Under the pieces are notes generated by a model that searched no databases, was not told the DNA's origin, and saw only the letters and a list, made by a program, of their open reading frames with translations. A stretch of DNA of 37,606 nt from a virus. How positions within the stretch are numbered: position 1 is the stretch's first letter; each line of letters opens with the position of its first letter. Both the position numbers and the translations under genes were made by a program. Location: IMG/VR virus record IMGVR_UViG_3300045988_011380. The stretch is one strand, 5' to 3'. Positions 3,544 to 16,868 of this stretch are shown in pieces.

Positions 3544-3924
3544 TTAAAACGGGAGCTGTCCGTCATCCTCGACATCGGCGAGCTGTGCGCCGGTGGCCGC
3601 GTCCTTGGCCTTTCCCTTGCCGCCGCAGAACCAGACGTTATCCGTCATAACCTCTGCCGCCGTGCGGTTCGAGCCGTCCTTGGCGGTGTACTTCTGCATC
3701 TGCAAACGTCCGGCAACAAGAATCATATCGCCCTTGCTGAAATAGCTTTCGATGAACGCCGCCGTCGCCTTAAATGCAACGCAGTTGATGAAGTCTGTTT
3801 CTTCCCGGTTGAAGTCACGGTCAACGGCAAGCGTGAAACGGGCTACCTTGTCGTTTTTCGTTGTGAGCCGTATCTCCGGCTCCTTCGTGAGCCTCCCTTG
3901 CAAGAGGATTCTGTTCATAGCCAT
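3544..3924 (-). CDS. ssb: single-stranded DNA-binding protein
   Basis: 126-aa ORF with an OB-fold SSB pattern (NRILLQGRLTKEPEIR...FTLAV) and an acidic C-terminal tip DDGQLPF. AAAGGAA RBS lies 8 nt upstream. Confidence 0.9.
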   Translation of the reverse strand: MAMNRILLQGRLTKEPEIRLTTKNDKVARFTLAVDRDFNREETDFINCVAFKATAAFIESYFSKGDMILVAGRLQMQKYTAKDGSNRTAAEVMTDNVWFCGGKGKAKDAATGAQLADVEDDGQLPF

Positions 3925-4247
3925 TGGTTATATTCCTTTCTGTAAATGAGATTCTTCTCGTCCCATCCGGGATACAGGGCTTTGAGATAGTCCCGGCAGT
4001 AGTTCCCGATCTCCTGCCGCATCGTTGTTGTGCCGTTGTCGAAGGCATCATGGCAGAGGCGGCAGAGGGTGAGGATGTTTTCCTCGATACCCAATCCCCC
4101 GCGGGAACGGGGGATGTAATGGGCTTCCGGGAATGCGTAAATCGACTTGCAGTAGACGCAGCAGTGGTTGTCGCGCTCCCATACGCGCTTCTTCACCGCC
4201 GGGGAGATGGCGCACGCCTTAGCGCGTTTGCTTGAGATTCTTTTCAC
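3915..4247 (-). CDS. HNH endonuclease
   Basis: Motif: CCVYCKS...EAHYIPRSRGGLGIEENILTLCRLCHDAFDNG. I prefer the GTG at 4247, preceded by GGGAGGG, over the TTG at 4268 used in the ORF track. Confidence 0.8.
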   Translation of the reverse strand: MKRISSKRAKACAISPAVKKRVWERDNHCCVYCKSIYAFPEAHYIPRSRGGLGIEENILTLCRLCHDAFDNGTTTMRQEIGNYCRDYLKALYPGWDEKNLIYRKEYNQWL

Positions 4248-10251: not shown

Positions 10252-11540
10252 GAGTTGCACTTTATGTCCGCGTCTCCACGGAAGAACAAGCCGTTCACGG
10301 CCTTTCCGTCGATGACCAGAAAGAAAGCCTGAAAAAATGGGCAGAGGAAAACAAGCATAAGGTCGTTGATTATTACGTCGATGCCGGGGTAAGCGGCAGG
10401 AAAAGCGTGTCAAAGCGGCCTGAATTGCAGCGGCTTCTATCCGATGTGGAAGCGGGGGAAATCGATCTCGTAGCGTTCACAAAATTAGACCGTTGGTTCC
10501 GCAACATCGGCGAGTTTTACAAAGCGCAGGAAGTGCTCGACGCGCACGGCGTTGTATGGCAAGCGACATACGAGGATTATGAGACCGCCACCGCCGCCGG
10601 ACGGTTAAAGGTCAACATTATGCTGTCCGTCGCGCAGGACGAGGCAGACAGAACGTCAGAGCGCGTTAAACGAATCATGCAGCACAAGCGGGAGCTTGGT
10701 CTCTGCCCGGCGGGCAAGACGCCCATCGGGTTAAAGGCCGTCGAGAGCCGCCTTTGCATCGACGAAGAAACGGCGCACGTTGCGAGGCGAATGTTTGAAG
10801 ATTACATCGCAACGGGAAGCGTTAACCACGTCAAGAAGATGCTCGTTTCCGAATTTGGAATAATGCGAGGAAATCATCACATCAAGAACGCGCTGGGCAA
10901 TGAACGATACATCGGAAAGAATAATGGGATTCAGGTCTGCGACGCGCTGATACCGCCGGAGGATTTTGCCCTTGTACAGCGGATGCTGACGGCGAGAAGC
11001 GTTCGCAACAACGGATCGCGGCACACATGGCTTTTCTCCGGCCTTGTCTGGTGCGCCGAATGCGGCCATCGTCTTGTGACGCATTCAACACGTCAACGGG
11101 GGACAGATTACTTCTATTACCGCTGCAAAAACTATGAACTGGGCATCTGCCGCCACAAAAAGAGAATCAACGAGGCGGCACTTGAAAAATATCTGCTTGC
11201 CAAGCTGCCAATCGAGGTACAGGCGCATAATGCAAAGCTCAAGGCGGGAAAAATAAAACCGACGGTTGACACGGCGGCGATCAAACGGAAAATGGACAAG
11301 CTGACAGACCTTTACCTTGCTGATCTAATCAACCGCGAGAAATACGAAATTGAATATACAGCATTAAAGGAAAAACTGAACGTACCGCCAGAGCCAAAGC
11401 CCATAGACGAAGCGCTTATCATGTCATTGCTTGACGCCTACGACAAGCTGCCGCCAAGCGGGAAAAAGGAAGCATGGAATCGCTTCATCCGCCGAATTGT
11501 CATTGCAAACAACGGCGAAATATTTTTTGATCTCGTTTAG
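10248..11540 (+). CDS. int: large serine recombinase (phage integrase)
   Basis: N-terminus MRVALYVRVSTEEQ...GLSVDDQ (resolvase catalytic Ser domain), then a recombinase domain and a zinc ribbon (CAECGHRL...YYRCKNY..C). 430 aa. Confidence 0.92.
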   Translation: MRVALYVRVSTEEQAVHGLSVDDQKESLKKWAEENKHKVVDYYVDAGVSGRKSVSKRPELQRLLSDVEAGEIDLVAFTKLDRWFRNIGEFYKAQEVLDAHGVVWQATYEDYETATAAGRLKVNIMLSVAQDEADRTSERVKRIMQHKRELGLCPAGKTPIGLKAVESRLCIDEETAHVARRMFEDYIATGSVNHVKKMLVSEFGIMRGNHHIKNALGNERYIGKNNGIQVCDALIPPEDFALVQRMLTARSVRNNGSRHTWLFSGLVWCAECGHRLVTHSTRQRGTDYFYYRCKNYELGICRHKKRINEAALEKYLLAKLPIEVQAHNAKLKAGKIKPTVDTAAIKRKMDKLTDLYLADLINREKYEIEYTALKEKLNVPPEPKPIDEALIMSLLDAYDKLPPSGKKEAWNRFIRRIVIANNGEIFFDLV

Positions 11541-11591: not shown

Positions 11592-11723
11592 AGTAGCGCG
11601 GGGTTGATCTCCGGCGTTTTCTAACGAAGCATTGAAAATTGGGAGAACGGCGTTTCCAAGCCGCCGGAATATGTTGTACGACTAATCGCGTTCTATCTTG
11701 TGAACAAGGAAAAGGAGGGATGA
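11592..11723 (+). pseudogene. orphan 3' fragment of an XRE-type HTH gene, interrupted by an in-frame TAA
   Basis: Hand translation: SSAGLISGVF-stop-RSIENWENGVSKPPEYVVRLIAFYLVNKEKEG-stop. No start codon or RBS. It is preceded by an AT-rich stretch just after the integrase stop. Confidence 0.5.
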
Positions 11724-11736
11724 AAGGCCCTCCTTT
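11711..11736. terminator. bidirectional terminator between the convergent integrase side and the end of the minus-strand operon
   Basis: 9-bp stem aaaggaggg / ccctccttt with an 8-nt loop. T-runs follow the stem on both strands. Confidence 0.6.
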
Positions 11737-11740
11737 TCGC

Positions 11741-12082
11741 TTATAGGTTGTTTAGTTTGTTCATGACCGCGGCGTAGGTTCTGGGCTGCATCACGCTAAG
11801 GCTTTCCATAAGCTCATCCATCACCCGCCATGCGTCCCGCGGCTCTTTGTCGGAGACGGTGCGGAGGAAGTCGCTGTTGCCGTATGCCGCGCCGGAATAA
11901 GCCGGGATAGACTGCACAACGGTACCTGGCGCAGATTGCATTGAAACCGATTGTGGTTCCTTATCCTTGTCCATTTCGGCGCGGATGGTGTAGAGGTCGG
12001 CGAGTTTGGCGTAATTGGGATAGCTTGACGGCTCATACTCGAGCCTCGCTATCTCCTTGCGAATCTCGAGTGCGTCCAGCAT
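11741..12082 (-). CDS. hypothetical protein (post-lysis cluster, gene 7)
   Basis: 113-aa helical-looking ORF; last gene before the terminator. Confidence 0.6.
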   Translation of the reverse strand: MLDALEIRKEIARLEYEPSSYPNYAKLADLYTIRAEMDKDKEPQSVSMQSAPGTVVQSIPAYSGAAYGNSDFLRTVSDKEPRDAWRVMDELMESLSVMQPRTYAAVMNKLNNL

Positions 12083-12083
12083 A

Positions 12084-12485
12084 TCAGCCGAGATCGTCGA
12101 GGCAGCGGCGCAGCGCCTCGCGGGTACGGTCGTCCTGCGCGTCGCGCATCATGCCCTCGATATGCTCACGCATACCGTCGCGGCTGTACCGTTCACTGTA
12201 ACGGTCGCCCTCGCCGTCGCGGCTGTAGTGGCCGCGGACGTAGTGCGTTCCGCGGCGGGCGTAGCTGCTGCCGCGTCCGTAGGTGCCGCGCATATCCGCT
12301 TCCCACTCACCGGCGCGGGAATAGTCCCCGTCTTCGAGCATTTCGATTTTGTCAATGTTCTTGACAGTATCGGTGATTTTGTGGAGGATATCGAGATCGC
12401 CCGCGCCGAGGTCGGGCTTTCGGGCTACTTCGTCCAGCTCGCGGCAGAGCTTTTCACGGATGGACTTCATTGCATATTCACTCAT
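12084..12485 (-). CDS. hypothetical Arg/Tyr/Gly/Asp-rich protein (post-lysis cluster, gene 6)
   Basis: Met 11 of the track ORF is preceded by AAAGGAG. Helical N- and C-terminal parts flank a low-complexity core: YSRAGEWEADMRGTYGRGSSYARRGTHYVRGHYSRDGEGDRYSERYSRDG. Confidence 0.65.
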   Translation of the reverse strand: MSEYAMKSIREKLCRELDEVARKPDLGAGDLDILHKITDTVKNIDKIEMLEDGDYSRAGEWEADMRGTYGRGSSYARRGTHYVRGHYSRDGEGDRYSERYSRDGMREHIEGMMRDAQDDRTREALRRCLDDLG

Positions 12486-12498
12486 GGTTTTTCTCCTT

Positions 12499-12921
12499 TC
12501 ACGCCACGCGCTCAACGATCATGTTGGCGTTGGCAACGTTGATGGCCTGTCCGCTGATGTTCTCCGCCGCGACAGTCAGGCAGCAGCCGTGGGGAACATC
12601 GACGTTCGCGGAAACAAAGATATTTCCGTAATCACCGACGGCTGCGGGGGTGACGACGGCGGTGGCGCTAACAAGCGGCTCGCCGTTGACGGCGATAGCA
12701 AGGGAAATTGCTTCGACCGTTCCGCCGGTGGGGATAGCAATGTTCGCGCCGAAGGACACTCTGTACCGTGCGCGGCACTGATTTGTCAGCCCGCGGAGGG
12801 TGACGATGCCCGCGCCCTCGCGGTGGACGATGCTGCAATTCCCGGCAACCGCTGTTTCGGTGAGGGGGACATTCTGCCCGGCGGCTACAAGCGCCGTCGA
12901 GGCGTTGGTAAATTCAGCCAT
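12499..12921 (-). CDS. hypothetical beta-rich protein (post-lysis cluster, gene 5)
   Basis: 140-aa ORF with an AAAGGAG RBS. Ala/Val/Gly/Asn-rich alternating pattern suggests an all-beta fold. Any likeness to BclA/C1q-type domains is a guess. Confidence 0.65.
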   Translation of the reverse strand: MAEFTNASTALVAAGQNVPLTETAVAGNCSIVHREGAGIVTLRGLTNQCRARYRVSFGANIAIPTGGTVEAISLAIAVNGEPLVSATAVVTPAAVGDYGNIFVSANVDVPHGCCLTVAAENISGQAINVANANMIVERVA

Positions 12922-12936
12922 TGTGGGTTTCTCCTT

Positions 12937-12970
12937 TCAAAAAGAGCGGCGGGGTATGATGCCCCGCCGC
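12937..12970 (-). terminator. rho-independent terminator between cluster genes 4 and 5
   Basis: 9-bp GC stem gcggcgggg / ccccgccgc with a 7-nt loop, followed on the minus strand by CTCTTTTT. Confidence 0.55.
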
Positions 12971-13031
12971 CGTGTGTTAAGTATCGGTATTATGCCGACC
13001 ATGCCGCTGGGGCAAGCTCTCGGTATGAAGT

Positions 13032-13730
13032 TTAGGCGCTACAACCGCAGCCGTAGTTGCAGCAATACGGGTTGGCGACCTGATACGCCGGGATGGGCGA
13101 CGGGCGAAGGGCAGAGACAAGGTAGCTGTTCTGCGCCGCCTGGGAGGCTGCGAGCTTGAGGCTCTGGTTTTCGCTTTCCAGATCGCGCATCTTGCTCTGC
13201 ACAAGGAAATCAAGGATAGCCTTGCTATTTCCGTTAGCGTTGTCGATGATGTCGCGGGCGGCGTTCTGCACGGTGTTGCGGGTGTCGCAAGCCTGAGATG
13301 CCATATCATAGCGCACCTGCGCAACGGCGGCGCGGTTTTCGCAGCAACACTCCTGCGACTGCATCTGCATCTGGAAGAGCTGCGCCATGAGGGCGGACTG
13401 CTGGTTCGCGCGGGAGAGTTCGGCGGACATAAAGCCGTTGCTCAGGTTCTGCTGCACGCCGTTGATGAGCTGCGCCTGCGCGAAGAAACCATCGCAGAGA
13501 CCGTTGTTCACGCCGTCGAGCTTGCGCTCGATGTTGGCGAAGTCGGAGGTGAGGATGTAACCATCGGTCACACCGCCGCGATTGCCGCCGAAGCCGCCCC
13601 AGCCGAAGAGGACGATGAAGAAGAGGATGATCCACCATCCGTCTCCGCCGAAGCCGCCCCAGCCGCCGTTATTCACGCCGGTAGGAGTTACGGGCATGGT
13701 GGGCTGAATACCACCGTCGGTAAGAGACAT
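13032..13730 (-). CDS. membrane protein with a Gly/Trp-rich N-terminus, Gln-rich coiled region and Cys clusters (post-lysis cluster, gene 4)
   Basis: 232-aa ORF with NNGGWGGFGGDGWWIILFFIVLFGWGGFGGNRGG (one TM), QECCCENR, and C-terminal NPYCCNYGCGCSA. GAAAGGAAA RBS. Confidence 0.7.
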   Translation of the reverse strand: MSLTDGGIQPTMPVTPTGVNNGGWGGFGGDGWWIILFFIVLFGWGGFGGNRGGVTDGYILTSDFANIERKLDGVNNGLCDGFFAQAQLINGVQQNLSNGFMSAELSRANQQSALMAQLFQMQMQSQECCCENRAAVAQVRYDMASQACDTRNTVQNAARDIIDNANGNSKAILDFLVQSKMRDLESENQSLKLAASQAAQNSYLVSALRPSPIPAYQVANPYCCNYGCGCSA

Positions 13731-13758
13731 TGTTCAATTTTCCTTTCAAAAAATATTT

Positions 13759-13776
13759 TTTATCCGGCCGGATAAA
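13759..13776. other. perfect 18-nt palindrome tttatccggccggataaa between cluster genes 3 and 4
   Basis: Read directly; flanked by A/T runs. It could be a hairpin/terminator or a protein-binding site. Confidence 0.4.
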
Positions 13777-13777
13777 T

Positions 13778-13984
13778 TCAACGTAAGAGCGCCTGGAATT
13801 GCTGTGCGGCACTTTGCAGTTGGTTTAGCTGCTGCTGGGAGATTTTGCCGCTTTGCAACAGCTTCTGCACCTCCTGCTGCGGATCGCCGCGAAAGGTGTT
13901 TCGGAATTGCTGGAACTGCTGGACAAGCTGGGCGAACTGGTTGTTCTGCCCGCCGCCGAATGCCTGAAACAGGGGGTTACTCAT
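13778..13984 (-). CDS. small Gln-rich protein (68 aa; post-lysis cluster, gene 3)
   Basis: Internal Met 78 of the track ORF is preceded by GGAGG: MSNPLFQAFGGGQNNQFAQLVQQFQQF...QQLNQLQSAAQQFQALLR. Overlaps the upstream stop. Confidence 0.6.
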   Translation of the reverse strand: MSNPLFQAFGGGQNNQFAQLVQQFQQFRNTFRGDPQQEVQKLLQSGKISQQQLNQLQSAAQQFQALLR

Positions 13985-14357
13985 TTTCGGTCGCCTCCGC
14001 TTTCTTTGCGGTTTTCTTCGGCGCGAACTGCGCCGCGAACGCTTCAAATTCCGCACGGGTGACGTATTCCGGTGTCTGCTGCGCCGGCGCGGGTTTGGTG
14101 CGCTCGGTGTAGTCGAGGATGCGCATGGAGGGAACGCCCGAAGCGTCAACGGACTTGACATAGATGCACATGTTTTCGCTGTCCCACAGCGGGACGGTGT
14201 TTCCCGCCGCGACAAGGTAGGACTTGGCGGCGGCTTCGCCCTGCACCCAGATCATCGGGTTCGGGGCGGGCTGCTGCGCACGGAGCTGCGCGAGCTGATC
14301 CATCATCGGCGGGGCGTAGGGCTGATAGTTCGGCTGGTAATACGGCGGATAGTTCAT
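13977..14357 (-). CDS. hypothetical protein with a Pro/Tyr/Gln-rich N-terminus (post-lysis cluster, gene 2)
   Basis: Met 17 of the track ORF is preceded by GGGAGG, with ATGA coupling. Begins MNYPPYYQPNYQPYAPP, followed by a compact domain (IWVQGEAAAKSYLVAAGNTVPLWDSE...). Confidence 0.65.
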   Translation of the reverse strand: MNYPPYYQPNYQPYAPPMMDQLAQLRAQQPAPNPMIWVQGEAAAKSYLVAAGNTVPLWDSENMCIYVKSVDASGVPSMRILDYTERTKPAPAQQTPEYVTRAEFEAFAAQFAPKKTAKKAEATENE

Positions 14358-14722
14358 CGTTTTTCCTCCCAAACGTAGATCGGTGTTTCGTTGCCGGAAT
14401 CCCAAGCGTCGTAGTATTCCCCATCAACGACCGAAACGACGTGGCCGCTGAGGGCGAGAATGTAGGAGCCGCAGGGATGCTCGGCGGCAAACTGCCGGAC
14501 GGTATAACCGTCGTAATCGGGGAGGGCGGAGCGCACAAATCCACGACGGCGGAGATACGCGCCCCAGACCGCATTAGCTGACGGCATATCGGACAGCTCG
14601 TGCCCTGTCGCCGCCAGATCCATATACACCTTGCCCCAGCTGTCGCCGGTCGCCTTAGCAATCGCACGAATCACGCAATCGCCCACGGCCTTGCCCGCCG
14701 GATTCGGGTTGAAATATTGCAT
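14354..14722 (-). CDS. putative papain-like/NlpC-P60-like cysteine hydrolase fold protein (post-lysis cluster, gene 1)
   Basis: Met 8 of the track ORF is preceded by GGGAGG. Cys...His...Asp spacing (GDCVIRAI ... SGHVVSVVDGEYYDAWDSG) suggests a Cys-His hydrolase. The function call is weak. Confidence 0.6.
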   Translation of the reverse strand: MQYFNPNPAGKAVGDCVIRAIAKATGDSWGKVYMDLAATGHELSDMPSANAVWGAYLRRRGFVRSALPDYDGYTVRQFAAEHPCGSYILALSGHVVSVVDGEYYDAWDSGNETPIYVWEEKR

Positions 14723-14754
14723 ACGGTCGCCTCCCACTACCAAAATTTTCGCAT

Positions 14755-14792
14755 AAAAAAAGAGGGCTAACCCATCGGTTAGCCCTCAAAAA
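14755..14792. terminator. strong bidirectional rho-independent terminator
   Basis: Perfect 10-bp stem gagggctaac / gttagccctc with a 6-nt loop, flanked by A7 and A5 (T7 follows the stem on the minus strand). Confidence 0.7.
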
Positions 14793-14807
14793 CCCATCAA
14801 TAACCCA

Positions 14808-15071
14808 TCATTCGATTGCAGCGGCGATCTTGTCCTTGATCGACCGTATACGGCGCTCGACTTTCTCTGTGCCGTACAGCTCCGTTTCCGTCTCCATGGC
14901 AAAGGAGATTTGCAGTACGCTCATTCCCTTTGCCCGCAGGCGGAAGATTTTTAGTTCCTCATCAGTAAAGCCGCAATCCCGCTCGAACTGTTCTCGCAGC
15001 TCTCGCGGGAATTGCAACTTATTCTTTGTCCCCGGCGTTGTTAAACTCCGTAGGATGCTCTCTGTCGTCAT
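14808..15071 (-). CDS. small sigma-70 region-4 / LuxR-type HTH regulator
   Basis: 87-aa ORF. FTDEELKIFRLRAKGMSVLQISFAMETE...TEKVERRIRSIKDKI fits a region-4-like HTH. Confidence 0.6.
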   Translation of the reverse strand: MTTESILRSLTTPGTKNKLQFPRELREQFERDCGFTDEELKIFRLRAKGMSVLQISFAMETETELYGTEKVERRIRSIKDKIAAAIE

Positions 15072-15171
15072 TGGCTACACTCTCCATATACGCTTCGTAA
15101 AGTGTCTCTGCGAGGCTTCCAGACGCCTCGACGCCATTGATGCGGCAGAATGTTTTTACGGATTCTTTCAT
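15019..15171 (-). CDS. small ORF (50 aa) overlapping the regulator start in another frame
   Basis: Hand translation: MKESVKTFCRINGVEASGSLAETLYEAYMESVANDDREHPTEFNNAGDKE. GGAG lies 9 nt upstream. 53-nt overlap with 14808..15071. Confidence 0.35.
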   Translation of the reverse strand: MKESVKTFCRINGVEASGSLAETLYEAYMESVANDDREHPTEFNNAGDKE

Positions 15172-15293: not shown

Positions 15294-15566
15294 TTATTCG
15301 TCTTTGTGGAGCTGCTTAAATACCTGATTGATGCCGGTCGCGGCAAGTCCAGAGACAATACCGACGGCAACAGCAGTCAGGTAGTCAGTGGCAGGGAAGT
15401 CCGGCACAATATGCAGTGCCAGAACACCAAGCGGCGCACCAACAATGCCGCAGATCGCGGGAATCCACTTATCGTTGATAGCATCGGTGTTCTTGATGAT
15501 GATGCCGATGAGATAGGCGATCACAACAATCGCCACGCAAGTAGTCAGCCCGAAGATGTTTTCCAT
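15294..15566 (-). CDS. holin (phiLC3-like, three TM segments)
   Basis: 90-aa ORF with three hydrophobic helices and a charged C-terminus (KQLHKDE), adjacent to the endolysin. Confidence 0.8.
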   Translation of the reverse strand: MENIFGLTTCVAIVVIAYLIGIIIKNTDAINDKWIPAICGIVGAPLGVLALHIVPDFPATDYLTAVAVGIVSGLAATGINQVFKQLHKDE

Positions 15567-15582: not shown

Positions 15583-15969
15583 TCATTTCAAAAAATCGTT
15601 CTTTGCAAGATGGCTTGCGTAGATGCCGTTGAGGTACTGAATCGTATTTGCGGCGCGGTTGTTCTCGTAGAGCGGATGCCCGGCGCAGAACTTTTCGTAC
15701 CGGTCCACGTCCCGGAGAACGTCCGCCCAATGCTCGGCGGTGTGAAGAACGCCCTGCCGCACCTCGTCACCGAAACGCAAAATGCGGCTTCGCGCTTCAT
15801 CCGCCCGGCAATTGGCGTCATCCTCGATGTGCTTCACGAGCTTTCCGTCGAGAGCGTCCAGCCGCTTCACGATCTCGCTTTTGTTCTTTCGGTTTGCGAG
15901 AATCAGCGAGAAGATGCCAGCTACCGCCGCACCGCCGCACGCGGTTATAATTGTGTTCAAGATTTCCAT
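15583..15969 (-). CDS. membrane-anchored protein of the lysis cassette, unknown role
   Basis: 128-aa ORF with an N-terminal TM (IITACGGAAVAGIFSLILA), located between endolysin and holin. Confidence 0.65.
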   Translation of the reverse strand: MEILNTIITACGGAAVAGIFSLILANRKNKSEIVKRLDALDGKLVKHIEDDANCRADEARSRILRFGDEVRQGVLHTAEHWADVLRDVDRYEKFCAGHPLYENNRAANTIQYLNGIYASHLAKNDFLK

Positions 15970-15980
15970 TCTATCTCTCC

Positions 15981-16868
15981 TTAAAATCCGAGAATCTTGT
16001 TCACGCGCTTCTGCACAGCCTCATACTTCGCGCCGAGCTTCTGCTTGCGCTCGTCTCCGTTGCCGTACTCGCCGCGGATGACTGCCTGTGCAAGCGCGGT
16101 GATCTCCTCGTCGGCTACAAGGATGTTTACGCGCTCCTGCACCTTGGCGTAATCGTACCCGGCAGCTTCGAGGGCGTCCTTGCGCGCCTGCCCGTTGCCC
16201 CACTTGCCGTTCAGCACTTCCTGCGCCAGCTCGTCCACCGTCGGCGCATCCTCCTCCGGCGTTTCCCCGGCGGCGAGAGCGTCCCACTCCTCGCCGGTGA
16301 TGTAGGCTTTATTTCCGTCCAGCCGCCCAGCCCAGCCGGAGAGATACAGCATACTGGTGTACTGACGTATATCACACTTGTATGCGCCCTCGTTCCACGG
16401 CGTTTCAAGATACCCACGAATCGGGTTGTAATTCGGATACTGTGCCGCCCAGAGACGGTAAGCGTTCAGCGTATTGGGGAACTGCCCGATGATACCCGCA
16501 GAAATGTAGAGGAAACCCGTGATGCCTACCTCGGATTTAACGTAATCCAGAAAACGTTTTGCCCACGAATCAGCGCCGTAACCATACGCGGCGTTCTGCG
16601 TTTTCTCCCAATCGAGAACGAGGATTGCCTTGCCGATATAGGGCTTCACAATGTTCAAAAAGTGCTGCGCTTCGCGTTCGGGGTTGCCGCCTCCGGCGTA
16701 GTGATACGCGCCCACGCGCTTGCCGGTGTGAATTGCGCGTTCCATCTGCCGCTTGAAGTCGGGGCTGATGTAGCCGGTAGACTGCGTTGCTTTGCAAATA
16801 ACAAAATCTGCGGAGATGTTTTCGAGCATGATGCCCGCCTGCCAGTTGGAAATGTCGATGCCGTTCAT
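15981..16868 (-). CDS. endolysin: GH25 muramidase with two CW_7-type cell-wall-binding repeats
   Basis: N-terminus MNGIDISNWQ...DFVICKATQSTGY (GH25). C-terminal repeats GKWGNGQARKDALEAAGYDYAKVQERVN and GEYGNGDERKQKLGAKYEAVQKRVN. Confidence 0.9.
   Translation of the reverse strand: MNGIDISNWQAGIMLENISADFVICKATQSTGYISPDFKRQMERAIHTGKRVGAYHYAGGGNPEREAQHFLNIVKPYIGKAILVLDWEKTQNAAYGYGADSWAKRFLDYVKSEVGITGFLYISAGIIGQFPNTLNAYRLWAAQYPNYNPIRGYLETPWNEGAYKCDIRQYTSMLYLSGWAGRLDGNKAYITGEEWDALAAGETPEEDAPTVDELAQEVLNGKWGNGQARKDALEAAGYDYAKVQERVNILVADEEITALAQAVIRGEYGNGDERKQKLGAKYEAVQKRVNKILGF

Follow-up and report, generated by a model that had tools for sequence, protein, structure and literature searches.

Downstream of the lysis genes in a 37,606-nucleotide stretch of viral DNA (IMG/VR record IMGVR_UViG_3300045988_011380, hereafter the window) lie seven tightly packed minus-strand genes which the original prediction could not match to standard virion, lysis or lysogeny functions. 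Are these genes real, do they belong together and what might they do? The observation itself was confirmed. All seven open reading frames exist on the minus strand between 11741 and 14722: g1, 14722..14354 (122 aa); g2, 14357..13977 (126 aa); g3, 13984..13778 (68 aa); g4, 13730..13032 (232 aa); g5, 12921..12499 (140 aa); g6, 12485..12084 (133 aa) and g7, 12082..11741 (113 aa). They are genes rather than chance reading frames as six match PHROG families at E values of 4e-7 to 7e-56 and all seven have protein-level homologues in many loci. As had been predicted, Shine-Dalgarno motifs precede g1 to g6 while g7 has none and is coupled to g6 (TGAtATG). The g1 and g2 genes overlap as ATGA and g2 and g3 overlap by 8 nt. 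The upstream genes encode a GH25+CW_7 endolysin and a Hol44 holin, and a convergent serine recombinase gene lies downstream.

The hairpins proposed to insulate the cluster were compared with shuffled controls. Three were far stronger than the controls: 14787..14762 with a T7 run (z −5.5), 12971..12945 (z −4.8) and 11736..11711 (z −7.5). The fourth, 13776..13759, was no better than chance (z +0.2). The first forms the intrinsic terminator of the lysis-gene unit (14752..14787, minus strand; −23.3 kcal/mol), with an 11-bp stem, a 4-nt loop and the T7 run, and a terminator-like hairpin lies upstream of the cassette in 28/39 non-redundant loci. The terminal hairpin (11711..11736, minus strand; −21.5 kcal/mol) closes the cassette between the convergent g7 and the recombinase gene, and a terminator-like hairpin follows the last gene in 12/38 non-redundant loci.

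Conserved synteny, which had been named beforehand as a test of whether the genes form a system, was examined by anchoring on either g4 or g5. The gene order was collinear in about 90/124 loci anchored on g4. When g5 was used, 75/75 loci with enough flanking sequence had the order g1<g2<g3<g4<g5 and 72/72 had g6. The g7 gene is the least constant member, being present in 45/124 and 50/72 loci. Protein identity falls to about 30% across these loci, yet only 2–4 of 80 loci share the lysin, holin or tail genes of the window. The identical g4 occurs next to either an Amidase_2 or a CHAP lysin and next to either a tyrosine or a serine recombinase. As the lysis, tail and integrase genes differ around a conserved block, the block is a mobile cassette, exchanged among thousands of gut phages. 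None of the seven proteins matched Pfam, NCBIfam or PADLOC at curated thresholds, and the virion gene set of the phage, from TerL to Tal, is complete without them. The lack of a PADLOC hit speaks against a defence system. The interpretation in the original prediction was thus partly supported: this is an undescribed multi-gene system with conserved synteny, but the comparison with exosporium proteins holds for g5 only and a role in the spore coat or exosporium was not supported.

The descriptions of the proteins made from sequence alone were accurate. The g1 protein is assigned as a minimal papain-like cysteine peptidase with a C39/Josephin-like predicted fold (AF2 pLDDT 94.9). Its Cys-His-Asp triad is invariant in 32 diverse homologues, the invariant residues being D15-C16, H94 and D105. 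Matches in the PDB were weak, Josephin-2 giving a probability of 0.96 and a TMq of 0.51, but BFVD shows that the fold is widespread in phages and includes a C39-domain protein. The g1 protein matches phrog_3754. The g5 protein is all-beta and is predicted to be a stand-alone TNF/C1q-like jelly roll (AF2 pLDDT 93.5) with an invariant Cys-Cys pair. A Foldseek search of the PDB gave E of about 1e-7 and TM scores of 0.73–0.78 to 9h38, 7r1m, 8d02 and 1wck, the model superposing on BclA-C, ExsFA and BxpB, although the Pfam BclA_C score of 18 bits is below the 38-bit cut-off.

The signature gene of the cassette is g4. Alignment and analysis of hydropathy and charge indicate a single-pass membrane protein with a Gly/Trp-rich hydrophobic segment (residues 31–49), a long helical, coiled-coil region with a near-invariant CCC, the motif LAASQxAQN and a Pro- and Cys/Gly-rich C-terminus. 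The family has at least 7,966 clusters at 90% identity and 1,483 clusters at 50% identity. A homologue in Bacteroides phage C3_41T2LP scored 99.8% probability in hhalign and crAss-like homologues were also found. Only a sub-threshold resemblance to the influenza HA2 fusion-peptide region was seen. The remaining four proteins are orphans with low-complexity regions. The g2 protein (phrog_21718) has a Tyr/Gln/Pro-rich N-terminal segment (74% Y/Q/P/N/M/G and 4% charged residues), a conserved beta-rich core of ∼55 aa (WVQGE...DASG.P) and a C-terminal helix with a Lys-rich tail; a PDB sequence search gave no hit. The g3 protein (phrog_22984) is a helical protein containing 29% Gln with a conserved N-terminal NP..F..(L)GG motif. 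The g6 protein has an N-terminal helical hairpin, a centre that is 73% R/Y/G/S/D and a C-terminal helix. Analogues of g6 in variant cassettes and in crAss-like and Bacteroides phages carry the same composition, fused or adjacent to DUF7841. The g7 protein is helical, with no detectable relation to DUF7841 and no hit in a PDB sequence search.

The original prediction held that there was no room for a promoter between the upstream terminator and g1, so that expression would need read-through or antitermination. This was an inference and the comparative data do not support it. Four phased 11-bp direct repeats (TGATGGGTTAT / TGATGGGTTTT / TGAGGGCTAAC / CGATGGGTTAG) lie at 14767..14810 on the minus strand, occupying the −35 region and lying upstream of it, and the terminator is built from repeat units 3 and 4. 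A −10-like hexamer, GAAAAT (14745..14750, minus strand), read from the sequence, lies 16 nt after the last repeat and 22 nt before the g1 ATG. Together these form a predicted promoter overlapping the terminator. Tandem Repeats Finder reported period 11 with 3.9 copies. In 46 non-redundant upstream regions period 11 was the best period in 23, with a mean match of 0.63 against 0.47±0.06 in shuffles, and the position relative to the first gene is conserved. The same layout recurs in roughly half of the divergent lineages examined, the same spacing being found with CATACT, TATGAT, TAGAAT, TACAAT, CATAAT or TATAAT. A low-GC relative, L101, has seven phased TACAA repeats.

The last gene of the lysis-gene transcription unit (14808..15071, minus strand) encodes an 87-aa stand-alone HTH protein of the sigma-70 region-4/LuxR(GerE) type, here called sig87, and a small HTH gene occupies this position in most lineages examined. 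Positional equivalents pass the Pfam cut-offs for Sigma70_r4, r4_2 or GerE. While sig87 itself has no Pfam hit, it is 45–50% identical to the L086–L088 type, of which L086 passes GerE. The HTH gene and the repeats stay 94–96% identical when the payload is swapped, i.e. the HTH gene and the promoter-like site move as one unit independently of the payload.

The spacer between g4 and g5 (12922..13031, minus strand) was found to be a conserved structured RNA element with no match in Rfam. It comprises hairpin A (13014..13002), hairpin B (12998..12984) and the GC-rich hairpin C (12971..12945), which is followed by a U-run and the g5 ribosome binding site. Hairpin C is present in 33/39 non-redundant loci with a nearly constant stem, GCGGCGGGGC/GCCCCGCCGC, and compensatory changes at 9 pairs. 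The key pair of hairpin B covaries (AU 14, GC 12, CG 2) and hairpin A keeps its register with unrelated stem sequences in about 26/29 sequences. The element is a candidate attenuator or stability element.

The distribution of the cassette bears on its role. The complete cassette is present in Butyrivibrio phage Ceridwen, a phage of Butyrivibrio fibrisolvens which was only seen to grow lytically and has no reported excisionase or other evidence of integration (PMC7372960). It is also present in a Vescimonas fastidiosa prophage, where it is the last phage block before host genes. The core of g4, an R/Y/D-rich protein and DUF7841 is present in crAss-like phages and in the plaque-forming Bacteroides phage C3_41T2LP. 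A lysin or holin lies within 3.5 kb upstream on the same strand in at least 16/29 non-redundant loci. In crAss-like cr52_1 the core sits beside a LysB/FtsL-like membrane protein in the stop-codon-recoded late region, and late structural and lysis genes are the recoded ones in such phages (10.1101/2021.08.26.457843). The link with lysis genes is not universal, however, as in several loci a giant polyvalent protein precedes the cassette and in C3_41T2LP the core lies among recombination and replication genes. The beta-rich neighbour of g4 in this Bacteroides phage is not detectably related to g5.

The reading preferred here, at a probability of about 0.4, is that of an autonomous cassette, exchanged horizontally and expressed during lytic growth. 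The gene set, its synteny and the conserved DNA and RNA elements are observed and the protein folds and topology are shown or predicted, whereas regulation, binding, expression, localisation, assembly and phenotype are inferred, the promoter and activator model resting only on conserved anatomy. In this view sig87 would bind the four repeats, which replace a −35 element, and switch on a promoter with only a −10 element so that the cassette would be expressed very late, after the lysis genes. Transcription would run through g1 to g4 and meet the three-hairpin element, which would pass only part of the transcripts into g5 to g7, and would end at the hairpin in front of the recombinase gene. The g4 protein would insert into the cytoplasmic membrane through its Gly/Trp-rich segment. 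As its N-tail carries no positive charge, the large coiled-coil and Cys-rich part may face the cytoplasm, though this topology is inferred only from the positive-inside rule. The g5 protein would form a TNF-like trimer, and g2, g3, g6 and g7, which have no signal peptides and are rich in Tyr/Gln/Pro or Arg/Tyr/Gly/Asp low-complexity regions, would form a scaffold around g4 and g5. The g1 peptidase would process one of the components; in a Bacteroides phage a PolyVal metallopeptidase sits at the equivalent position. Least certain is the role. The best guess is that the membrane-anchored complex acts on the cell envelope at the end of the lytic cycle, in lysis timing, membrane disruption or egress, and is neither a virion part nor a lysogen trait. 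Against this, single-membrane (monoderm) hosts already have a holin and an endolysin here so the need for a further lysis factor is unclear, and five of the seven proteins have no fold assignment.

Other explanations appear less likely. The proteins may be virion-associated, with g4 and g5 forming a fibre, spike or decoration or being ejected to penetrate membranes, and with the low-complexity proteins packaged or internal and matured by the peptidase, as happens with polyvalent proteins. The g5 model also resembles the central spike knob of phage phi812 and a cyanophage tail protein, and crAss-like and Bacteroides records annotate the g4 homologues as ‘spike protein/glycoprotein’ or ‘outer capsid protein/viral fiber’. 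The hydrophobic Gly-rich segment followed by a coiled coil underlies the sub-threshold HA2 matches, a peptidase is a recurring member (papain-like here, PolyVal metallopeptidase in C3_41T2LP), the cassette follows a MuF_C/LPD38 polyvalent protein in some loci and it is co-oriented with the late genes. However, it is separated from the structural genes by the lysis genes and a strong terminator, it has its own candidate regulator and the virion gene set is complete without it. It is nearly identical in phages with unrelated heads and tails, with parts in both siphoviruses and podoviruses, which is hard to reconcile with specific docking onto a virion, and expression after the lysis genes would be too late for incorporation into procapsids. 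Somewhat less likely again is a lysogenic-conversion ‘moron’ cassette expressed from the prophage and altering the envelope of the lysogen, for example by superinfection exclusion or by building a surface structure. The cassette occupies the classic position between the lysin and the recombinase/attachment site, it is bracketed by terminators with its own promoter-like site, it borders host genes in the Vescimonas prophage and many IMG/VR contigs end just after it. The lytic growth of Ceridwen, the presence of the core in crAss-like and other plaque-forming Bacteroides phages, the lack of signal peptides and the absence of a PADLOC match argue against this, and the location of the candidate activator gene at the end of the lysis unit points to lytic-phase expression.

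A cargo set free by phage lysis to act on third parties, such as a bacteriocin-like or signalling peptide or a binding protein, with g1 cutting a Gly-Gly leader off g3 or g4, is doubtful. Proteins without signal peptides encoded beside a holin, an endolysin and a region-4 regulator recall the TcdR/TcdE and UviA/UviB loci. The g1 fold matches C39-domain proteins, g3 has a conserved short N-terminal segment ending in GG, g4 ends in a Cys-rich peptide and high conservation across unrelated phage backbones fits a target outside the phage. However, no toxin or bacteriocin family was matched, the GG motif does not fit the double-glycine leader consensus, g1 is missing from a variant cassette that keeps g2-, g3-, g4- and g6-like genes, and a membrane protein and four further conserved proteins would be left unexplained. 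Least likely is the suggestion of the original prediction, itself offered as speculation, that these are proteins of spore-coat, exosporium or surface-layer type, which here would modify the host spore or surface. In its favour are the predicted BclA-C/ExsFA/BxpB fold of g5, Cys-rich, Tyr-rich and Gln-rich compositions resembling coat proteins and a GerE-like regulator, GerE controlling coat genes in Bacillus. There is, however, no collagen-like stalk, the BclA_C score is sub-threshold and none of the proteins has a secretion signal. The idea is largely refuted by the host range, as the hosts of the complete cassette include B. fibrisolvens and V. fastidiosa, neither of which is known to sporulate, and the g4/DUF7841 core is found in phages of Bacteroides and in crAss-like phages.

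The seven genes described in the original prediction are real. On the minus strand of the window, the tail genes are followed by a GH25+CW_7 endolysin (16868..15981), a 128-aa membrane protein, a Hol44-type holin (15566..15294) and two small overlapping ORFs, after which come seven tightly packed genes: g1 (14722..14354, 122 aa), g2 (14357..13977, 126 aa), g3 (13984..13778, 68 aa), g4 (13730..13032, 232 aa), g5 (12921..12499, 140 aa), g6 (12485..12084, 133 aa) and g7 (12082..11741, 113 aa). Six of the seven have Shine-Dalgarno motifs, g7 is coupled to g6 (TGAtATG), and g1/g2 and g2/g3 overlap. A convergent serine recombinase gene ends at 11540. The 128-aa protein between the endolysin and the holin (15583-15969, minus strand; phrog_37604, unknown function) has an N-terminal membrane segment and may belong to an unrecognised lysis-associated family. 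A 50-aa ORF (15019-15171, minus strand) overlaps the first 53 nt of the HTH gene sig87 (14808-15071, minus strand) in another frame, and both are conserved in the close relatives (84-96% identity). The rest of the window is a complete siphovirus gene set, namely large terminase, portal, MuF-like minor head protein, major head, major tail, tape measure, Dit and a minor tail protein. The seven genes are therefore not needed to complete a standard virion.

Three hairpins are far stronger than shuffled controls: 14787..14762 followed by a run of seven T residues (z -5.5), 12971..12945 (z -4.8) and 11736..11711 (z -7.5). The small hairpin at 13776..13759 is no better than chance (z +0.2). The first two, followed directly by T7 and CTTTTT respectively, have the GC-rich stem-loop and U-run of intrinsic (Rho-independent) terminators, while the third has a strong stem but its U-run is partly inside the stem and interrupted.

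The block is a conserved system and not a chance neighbourhood. When 124 loci were fetched through g4 from IMG/VR and from GTDB genomes, the order g1-g2-g3-g4-g5-g6 recurred in about 90 of them with protein identity down to about 30-50%, whereas the holin, lysin and tail proteins of the window recurred only in its five closest relatives. To avoid ascertainment through g4, the test was repeated with g5 as the anchor. All 75 loci with enough upstream DNA have g1<g2<g3<g4<g5, and of the 72 with enough downstream DNA all have g6 and 50 have g7, but only 2-4 of the 80 loci share the lysin, holin or HTH gene of the window. One exact g4 sequence, listed in 419 blocks of the assembly collection, occurs with either an Amidase_2 or a CHAP lysin and next to a tyrosine integrase instead of a serine recombinase. 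The families are large. The g4 family has at least 7,966 clusters at 90% identity and 1,483 clusters at 50% identity, all about 200-300 aa and never fused in the top 150, while g5 has at least 8,000 clusters and g1 has 4,769. The named carriers are Oscillospiraceae and other Clostridia MAGs, Ruminococcus bicirculans and Subdoligranulum. The block is therefore a mobile cassette under purifying selection. Independent occurrence of the genes, which had been named beforehand as an outcome that would refute the idea of a multi-gene system, is not observed. The interpretation offered in the original prediction is thus supported in part: the genes do form a conserved multi-gene system, but its speculative comparison with spore-coat or exosporium proteins as a guide to function, and its statement that a promoter cannot be accommodated, are not supported.

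All seven proteins are of 'unknown function' in PHROGs (g7 has no PHROG at all), and none reaches a curated cut-off in Pfam, NCBIfam or PADLOC. The search of PADLOC-DB 2.0 gave only a chance-level hit of g3 to DpdA (E 0.005), and a reading as a known anti-phage defence system was rejected. Profile searches against solved structures found nothing for g1, g2, g5 and g7 and gave only noise for g6 and for DUF7841. None of the seven has a signal peptide.

In g1 the residues D15-C16, H94 and D105 are invariant in sets of 32 and 51 homologues, in the Cys-His-Asp order of C39- and Josephin-type peptidases. The AlphaFold model is confident (pLDDT 94.9) and places the Cys at the start of helix 16-25. 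On this basis g1 is predicted to be a minimal papain-like (clan CA) cysteine peptidase. Its model matches solved structures only weakly (Josephin-2 at E 0.019 and TMq 0.51, staphopain and Tae4). Among predicted viral structures in BFVD the fold is common in small uncharacterised proteins of many phages and includes a C39-domain protein at E 1e-3. Unlike the described C39 and Josephin peptidases, g1 is only 122 aa long and has no Pfam match, no solved close relative and no attached transporter domain.

The model of g5 (AF2 pLDDT 93.5) is a TNF/C1q-type jelly roll. Its best matches are the exosporium proteins F-BclA, ExsFA, BxpB and BclA-C of the Bacillus cereus group (PDB 9h38, 7r1m, 8d02 and 1wck, TM 0.73-0.78, Foldseek E about 1e-7), with TNF ligands and a phage spike knob coming next. 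Like ExsFA/BxpB it is a stand-alone protein of about 140 aa. However, identity to these proteins is only 11-17%, and Pfam BclA_C (PF18573) aligns over the full length but scores 18.1 bits against a cut-off of 38 bits. The low-GC analogue scores 15.9 bits. As the bare 140-aa domain, g5 has neither the N-terminal collagen-like stalk nor the exosporium-targeting motif of BclA proper, and it has an invariant Cys-Cys pair. It is encoded by phages of hosts that are not known to sporulate, and this host range argues against a location on the spore.

The g4 protein has one hydrophobic Gly/Trp-rich segment near its N-terminus, a long helical region with a near-invariant CCC and the motif LAASQxAQN, and a Pro-rich then Cys/Gly-rich C-terminus. 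Its N-terminal tail of about 30 aa lacks Lys/Arg in 27 of 41 family members, while the downstream flank has 1-3, from which it is inferred that the large domain may be cytoplasmic. A profile search of solved structures with g4 returned only sub-threshold hits (E 0.16 and above), all to the fusion-peptide/coiled-coil start of influenza HA2. This is treated as a resemblance and a lead, not as homology, though it probably explains the 'spike protein/glycoprotein' labels in crAss-like records. The arrangement of an N-proximal hydrophobic segment followed by about 180 aa of coiled coil with conserved cysteines, usually encoded beside lysis genes, is shared with lysis accessory membrane proteins such as the i-spanin Rz and the T4 holin T, as well as with class I viral fusion subunits. 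It differs from the two-component spanin Rz/Rz1 in that, judging from signal sequences alone, none of the seven proteins is a candidate for the outer-membrane lipoprotein partner, and the hosts are Oscillospiraceae and Lachnospiraceae, most hosts having a single membrane. The g2, g3 and g6 proteins carry low-complexity regions whose composition, and not their sequence, is conserved: the N-terminal segment of g2 is 74% Y/Q/P/N/M/G, the centre of g6 is 73% R/Y/G/S/D and g3 is 29% Gln.

The anatomy of the region suggests that the cassette is its own transcription unit. In most lineages examined the gene just upstream encodes a 66-87 aa HTH protein. At several of the fetched loci (designated by L numbers) this protein passes the Pfam cut-offs: Sigma70_r4_2 in L024 at 38.9 bits (cut-off 25.7), Sigma70_r4 in L101 at 30.2 bits and in L112 at 35 bits (cut-off 24.1), and GerE in L086 at 25.9 bits (cut-off 23.5). 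The copy in the window, sig87 (15071..14808), has no Pfam hit of its own but is 45-50% identical to the L086-L088 type. Between the sig87 stop codon and the g1 ribosome-binding site lie four tandem 11-bp units, TGATGGGTTAT, TGATGGGTTTT, TGAGGGCTAAC and CGATGGGTTAG (14810-14767), for which Tandem Repeats Finder reports period 11 and 3.9 copies. Units 3 and 4 form the terminator stem. After 16 nt comes the -10-like hexamer GAAAAT (14750-14745) and, 22 nt further on, the ATG. The same layout, with 2-7 units, about 16 nt of spacer and a constant geometry, recurs with unrelated repeat sequences in other lineages, such as TGATGC.., TGACCC.., GACAGATT.., GGGCAGTTT.., GCCACTTT.. and seven TACAA units in a 30%-GC relative, and is seen for instance in L101 (9150-9270) and upstream of g1 in L031, L091, L098 and L067. 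The hexamers in these lineages are CATACT, TATGAT, TAGAAT, TACAAT, CATAAT and TATAAT. Over 46 non-redundant upstream regions, period 11 is the best of nine periods in 23, and the mean three-unit match is 0.63 against 0.47+-0.06 in shuffles. In the examples with clear repeats, the repeat block starts about 85-95 nt before g1, or about 200-215 nt before it where an extra small gene (g0) intervenes.

A natural swap experiment was found in sister phages with the same backbone as the window (L052, 6945-9664, and the sister loci L050, L053, L055-57, L065-71 and L074). These keep sig87 (94-96% identity), the repeats, the hairpin and a GACAAT hexamer, as well as the recombinase (93-96% identity where it lies within the fetched locus). 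Behind them, however, they carry a different version of the cassette, with no g1, very divergent g2- and g3-like genes, g4 at 63% identity, a Cys-rich 129-aa beta protein and an R/Y/D-rich, g6-like protein fused to DUF7841 (E 1e-30). The payload has thus been swapped behind a constant regulator and promoter-like site.

From this conserved anatomy alone, it is inferred that the HTH protein activates a -10-only promoter through the phased repeats. The claim of the original prediction that there is no room for a promoter does not hold. Because the HTH gene is the last gene of the lysis unit, the cassette would be expressed very late. The arrangement recalls small stand-alone region-4/LuxR-type activators such as GerE, and phage late-gene activators that act at promoters lacking a -35 element (Mu Mor/C, phi29 p4), in that a small HTH protein is encoded just upstream of a promoter-like site with a -10 hexamer but no -35, with repeated sites in its place. 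One relative also gives a weak Mor-family hit. It differs in that the candidate sites are direct repeats phased at 11 bp and not an inverted repeat, and in the window they overlap an intrinsic terminator.

The hairpin noted in the original prediction at 12946-12970 is part of a conserved element of about 100 nt that occupies the g4-g5 spacer (12922-13031, minus strand; also, for example, L044, 8718-8838, and L211, 5883-6003). The stem of its hairpin C, GCGGCGGGGC/GCCCCGCCGC, is present in 33 of 39 non-redundant loci, lies about 60-70 nt after the g4 stop and is almost constant in sequence even where g4 proteins are only 33-50% identical. Nine pairs show compensatory changes. The stem of hairpin B, TCRGC...GCYGA, covaries (AU 14, GC 12, CG 2), and hairpin A covaries as well, keeping its register next to a conserved TG.TC anchor in about 26 of 29 sequences with completely different stem sequences. 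A U-run and the g5 ribosome-binding site (GAAAGGA) follow. A search of Rfam 15 gave one spurious miRNA hit at E 0.22 inside g4 and nothing in the intergenic regions. The element probably attenuates or stabilises transcripts, setting the ratio of g1-g4 to g5-g7, and the constant stem sequence suggests that a protein recognises it.

The DUF7841 domain of the variant cassette led to crAss-like phages. In cr52_1 (NC_055888, 28.3-31 kb; locus L125) the neighbouring genes encode a LysB/FtsL-like membrane protein, a DUF7841 protein with an R/Y/D/E-rich tail (E 9e-43), a clear g4 homologue with the G/W-rich segment and CCC motif, and a beta-rich protein. The protein that precedes the g4/DUF7841 core here (L125, 2668-3291) has an architecture similar to that of the 128-aa protein of the window. 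These genes lie in the region that uses recoded stop codons, and the g4 homologue and its upstream neighbour (L125, 2668-5499) contain in-frame stop codons under the standard genetic code. This is consistent with published work reporting that late structural and lysis genes are the recoded ones in such phages (10.1101/2021.08.26.457843). The cultured Bacteroides phage C3_41T2LP has a g4 homologue (hhalign probability 99.8%) followed by a beta-rich protein, a coiled-coil protein, a 77-aa R/Y/D-rich protein, a DUF7841 protein and a PolyVal metallopeptidase, all among recombination genes. Its beta-rich protein is not detectably related to g5 (hhalign probability 0.8%). A weak g4-like hit even occurs in a virus assigned to Methanomassiliicoccales (Caudoviricetes sp. 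vir335). The labels on these genes in public records, 'spike protein/glycoprotein', 'outer capsid protein/viral fiber' and 'RNA polymerase sigma factor/ubiquitin-like protein', the last being that of the crAss-like DUF7841 proteins, look like artefacts of weak remote matches. In variant cassettes and in crAss-like and Bacteroides phages DUF7841 is fused or adjacent to an R/Y/D-rich segment next to a g4 homologue. The window has no DUF7841, and g7, which occupies the equivalent position, is not detectably related to it (hhalign probability 0.5%).

The complete cassette was found in the cultured Butyrivibrio virus Ceridwen, which carries, in order, a lysin, a 64-aa membrane protein, a 73-aa region-4 HTH, a terminator, g0, g1-g5, an inserted HNH gene, g6 and g7. 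Its authors saw only lytic growth and reported no evidence of excisionase genes (PMC7372960), and there is no other reported evidence of integration. The cultured bacterium Vescimonas fastidiosa MM35 carries a prophage with the cassette as its last block before host genes. This prophage, on a Vescimonas chromid, is also the only carrier in the plasmid collection. Given these hosts and phages a spore-specific role was rejected, and a purely lysogenic role is unlikely.

Taken together, the analysis itself establishes a mobile, conserved cassette that contains a predicted papain-like peptidase, a predicted TNF-like jelly roll, a single-pass membrane protein and four proteins that are orphan or low-complexity, and that is flanked by strong hairpins and contains a covarying RNA element. 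The dedicated region-4 activator acting on phased repeats, the very late expression and the attenuation between g4 and g5 are inferences from conserved anatomy, as any peptidase activity of g1 is from its sequence and model. Least certain is the inference that the proteins assemble on g4 at the cytoplasmic membrane and act on the envelope at the end of the lytic cycle. In its favour, lysis genes lie within 3.5 kb upstream in at least 16 of 29 non-redundant loci, whatever the lysin type, and both the crAss-like context and the presence in lytic phages point the same way. However, some loci place the cassette among recombination genes or directly behind a giant ORF of 1,200-2,400 aa (L102, 1137-8405; L044, 65-6397; L098, 40-5103; L203, 57-3662), which in L102 is a polyvalent protein with MuF_C and LPD38 domains, and in those cases the link to lysis is not evident. 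The giant ORFs may instead hint at a link with injected polyvalent proteins. This explanation is held only tentatively, with a probability of about 0.4.

Among the alternatives, virion accessory or ejection proteins are less likely than the reading above, and the completeness of the virion gene set without the cassette has already been mentioned. A lysogenic-conversion cassette is slightly less likely again. The position of the cassette is that of the morons found between the lysin gene and attR of Gram-positive temperate phages, and it has its own promoter-like site, a predicted promoter only, and flanking terminators. In contrast to such morons, it has seven genes and a regulator, none of its proteins has a signal peptide, and carriage does not appear to be limited to temperate phages, since it is complete in Ceridwen, which was seen only to grow lytically, and its core is in crAss-like phages. 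Cargo released by lysis appears improbable and a spore-coat role more so. A bolder possibility, unlikely but not excluded, is that the cassette encodes a new kind of phage membrane machine, in which a protease-primed g4 with an HA2-like hydrophobic segment and a coiled coil would be capped by a TNF-like trimer of g5 and surrounded by a condensate-like scaffold of Tyr-rich and Arg-rich low-complexity proteins. It would be switched on after the lysis genes by its own region-4 activator, tuned by a new attenuator RNA, and would remodel or fuse membranes at egress, in lysis, vesicle formation or release. If true, such a machine would be shared by gut phages of Bacillota and Bacteroidota and possibly by archaeal viruses.

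No curated protein, RNA or defence library searched contains the parts, the combination matches no known phage module, and literature searches on DUF7841, on prophage BclA/exosporium proteins and on crAss fusion peptides or lysis cassettes found no description of this cassette. It is considered new at the level of the system, although it could still turn out to be an unusual form of lysis accessory or virion accessory. None of the seven families has a name or a function, yet the cassette is abundant, is held under strong purifying selection and moves between unrelated phages, and its core crosses bacterial phyla. It very likely serves a general step of phage biology in the gut that has no current explanation. 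Two apparently new regulatory elements come with it, a predicted promoter type built from phased 11-bp repeats with a putative dedicated region-4 activator and the conserved three-hairpin RNA. The cassette or its core is available in three cultured systems, Ceridwen on B. fibrisolvens DSM 3071, the V. fastidiosa MM35 prophage and C3_41T2LP.

Many versions of the cassette have the extra small gene g0 (40-68 aa; e.g. MYDRLLALGFTEQMAMDILTLF...) just upstream of g1 and overlapping its start, as in L128 (5741-5908) and in L212 (Ceridwen, 3878-4084). The window lacks it. It resembles a UBA-like three-helix motif, which together with the weak Josephin-like match of g1 makes a curious pairing. The extra DNA between g4 and g5 in L081 (11118-11780) is an inserted HNH-type endonuclease gene, as is the insertion between g5 and g6 in Ceridwen (L212, 6449-7312). 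These are not further members of the cassette, which therefore tolerates mobile insertions at its internal junctions.
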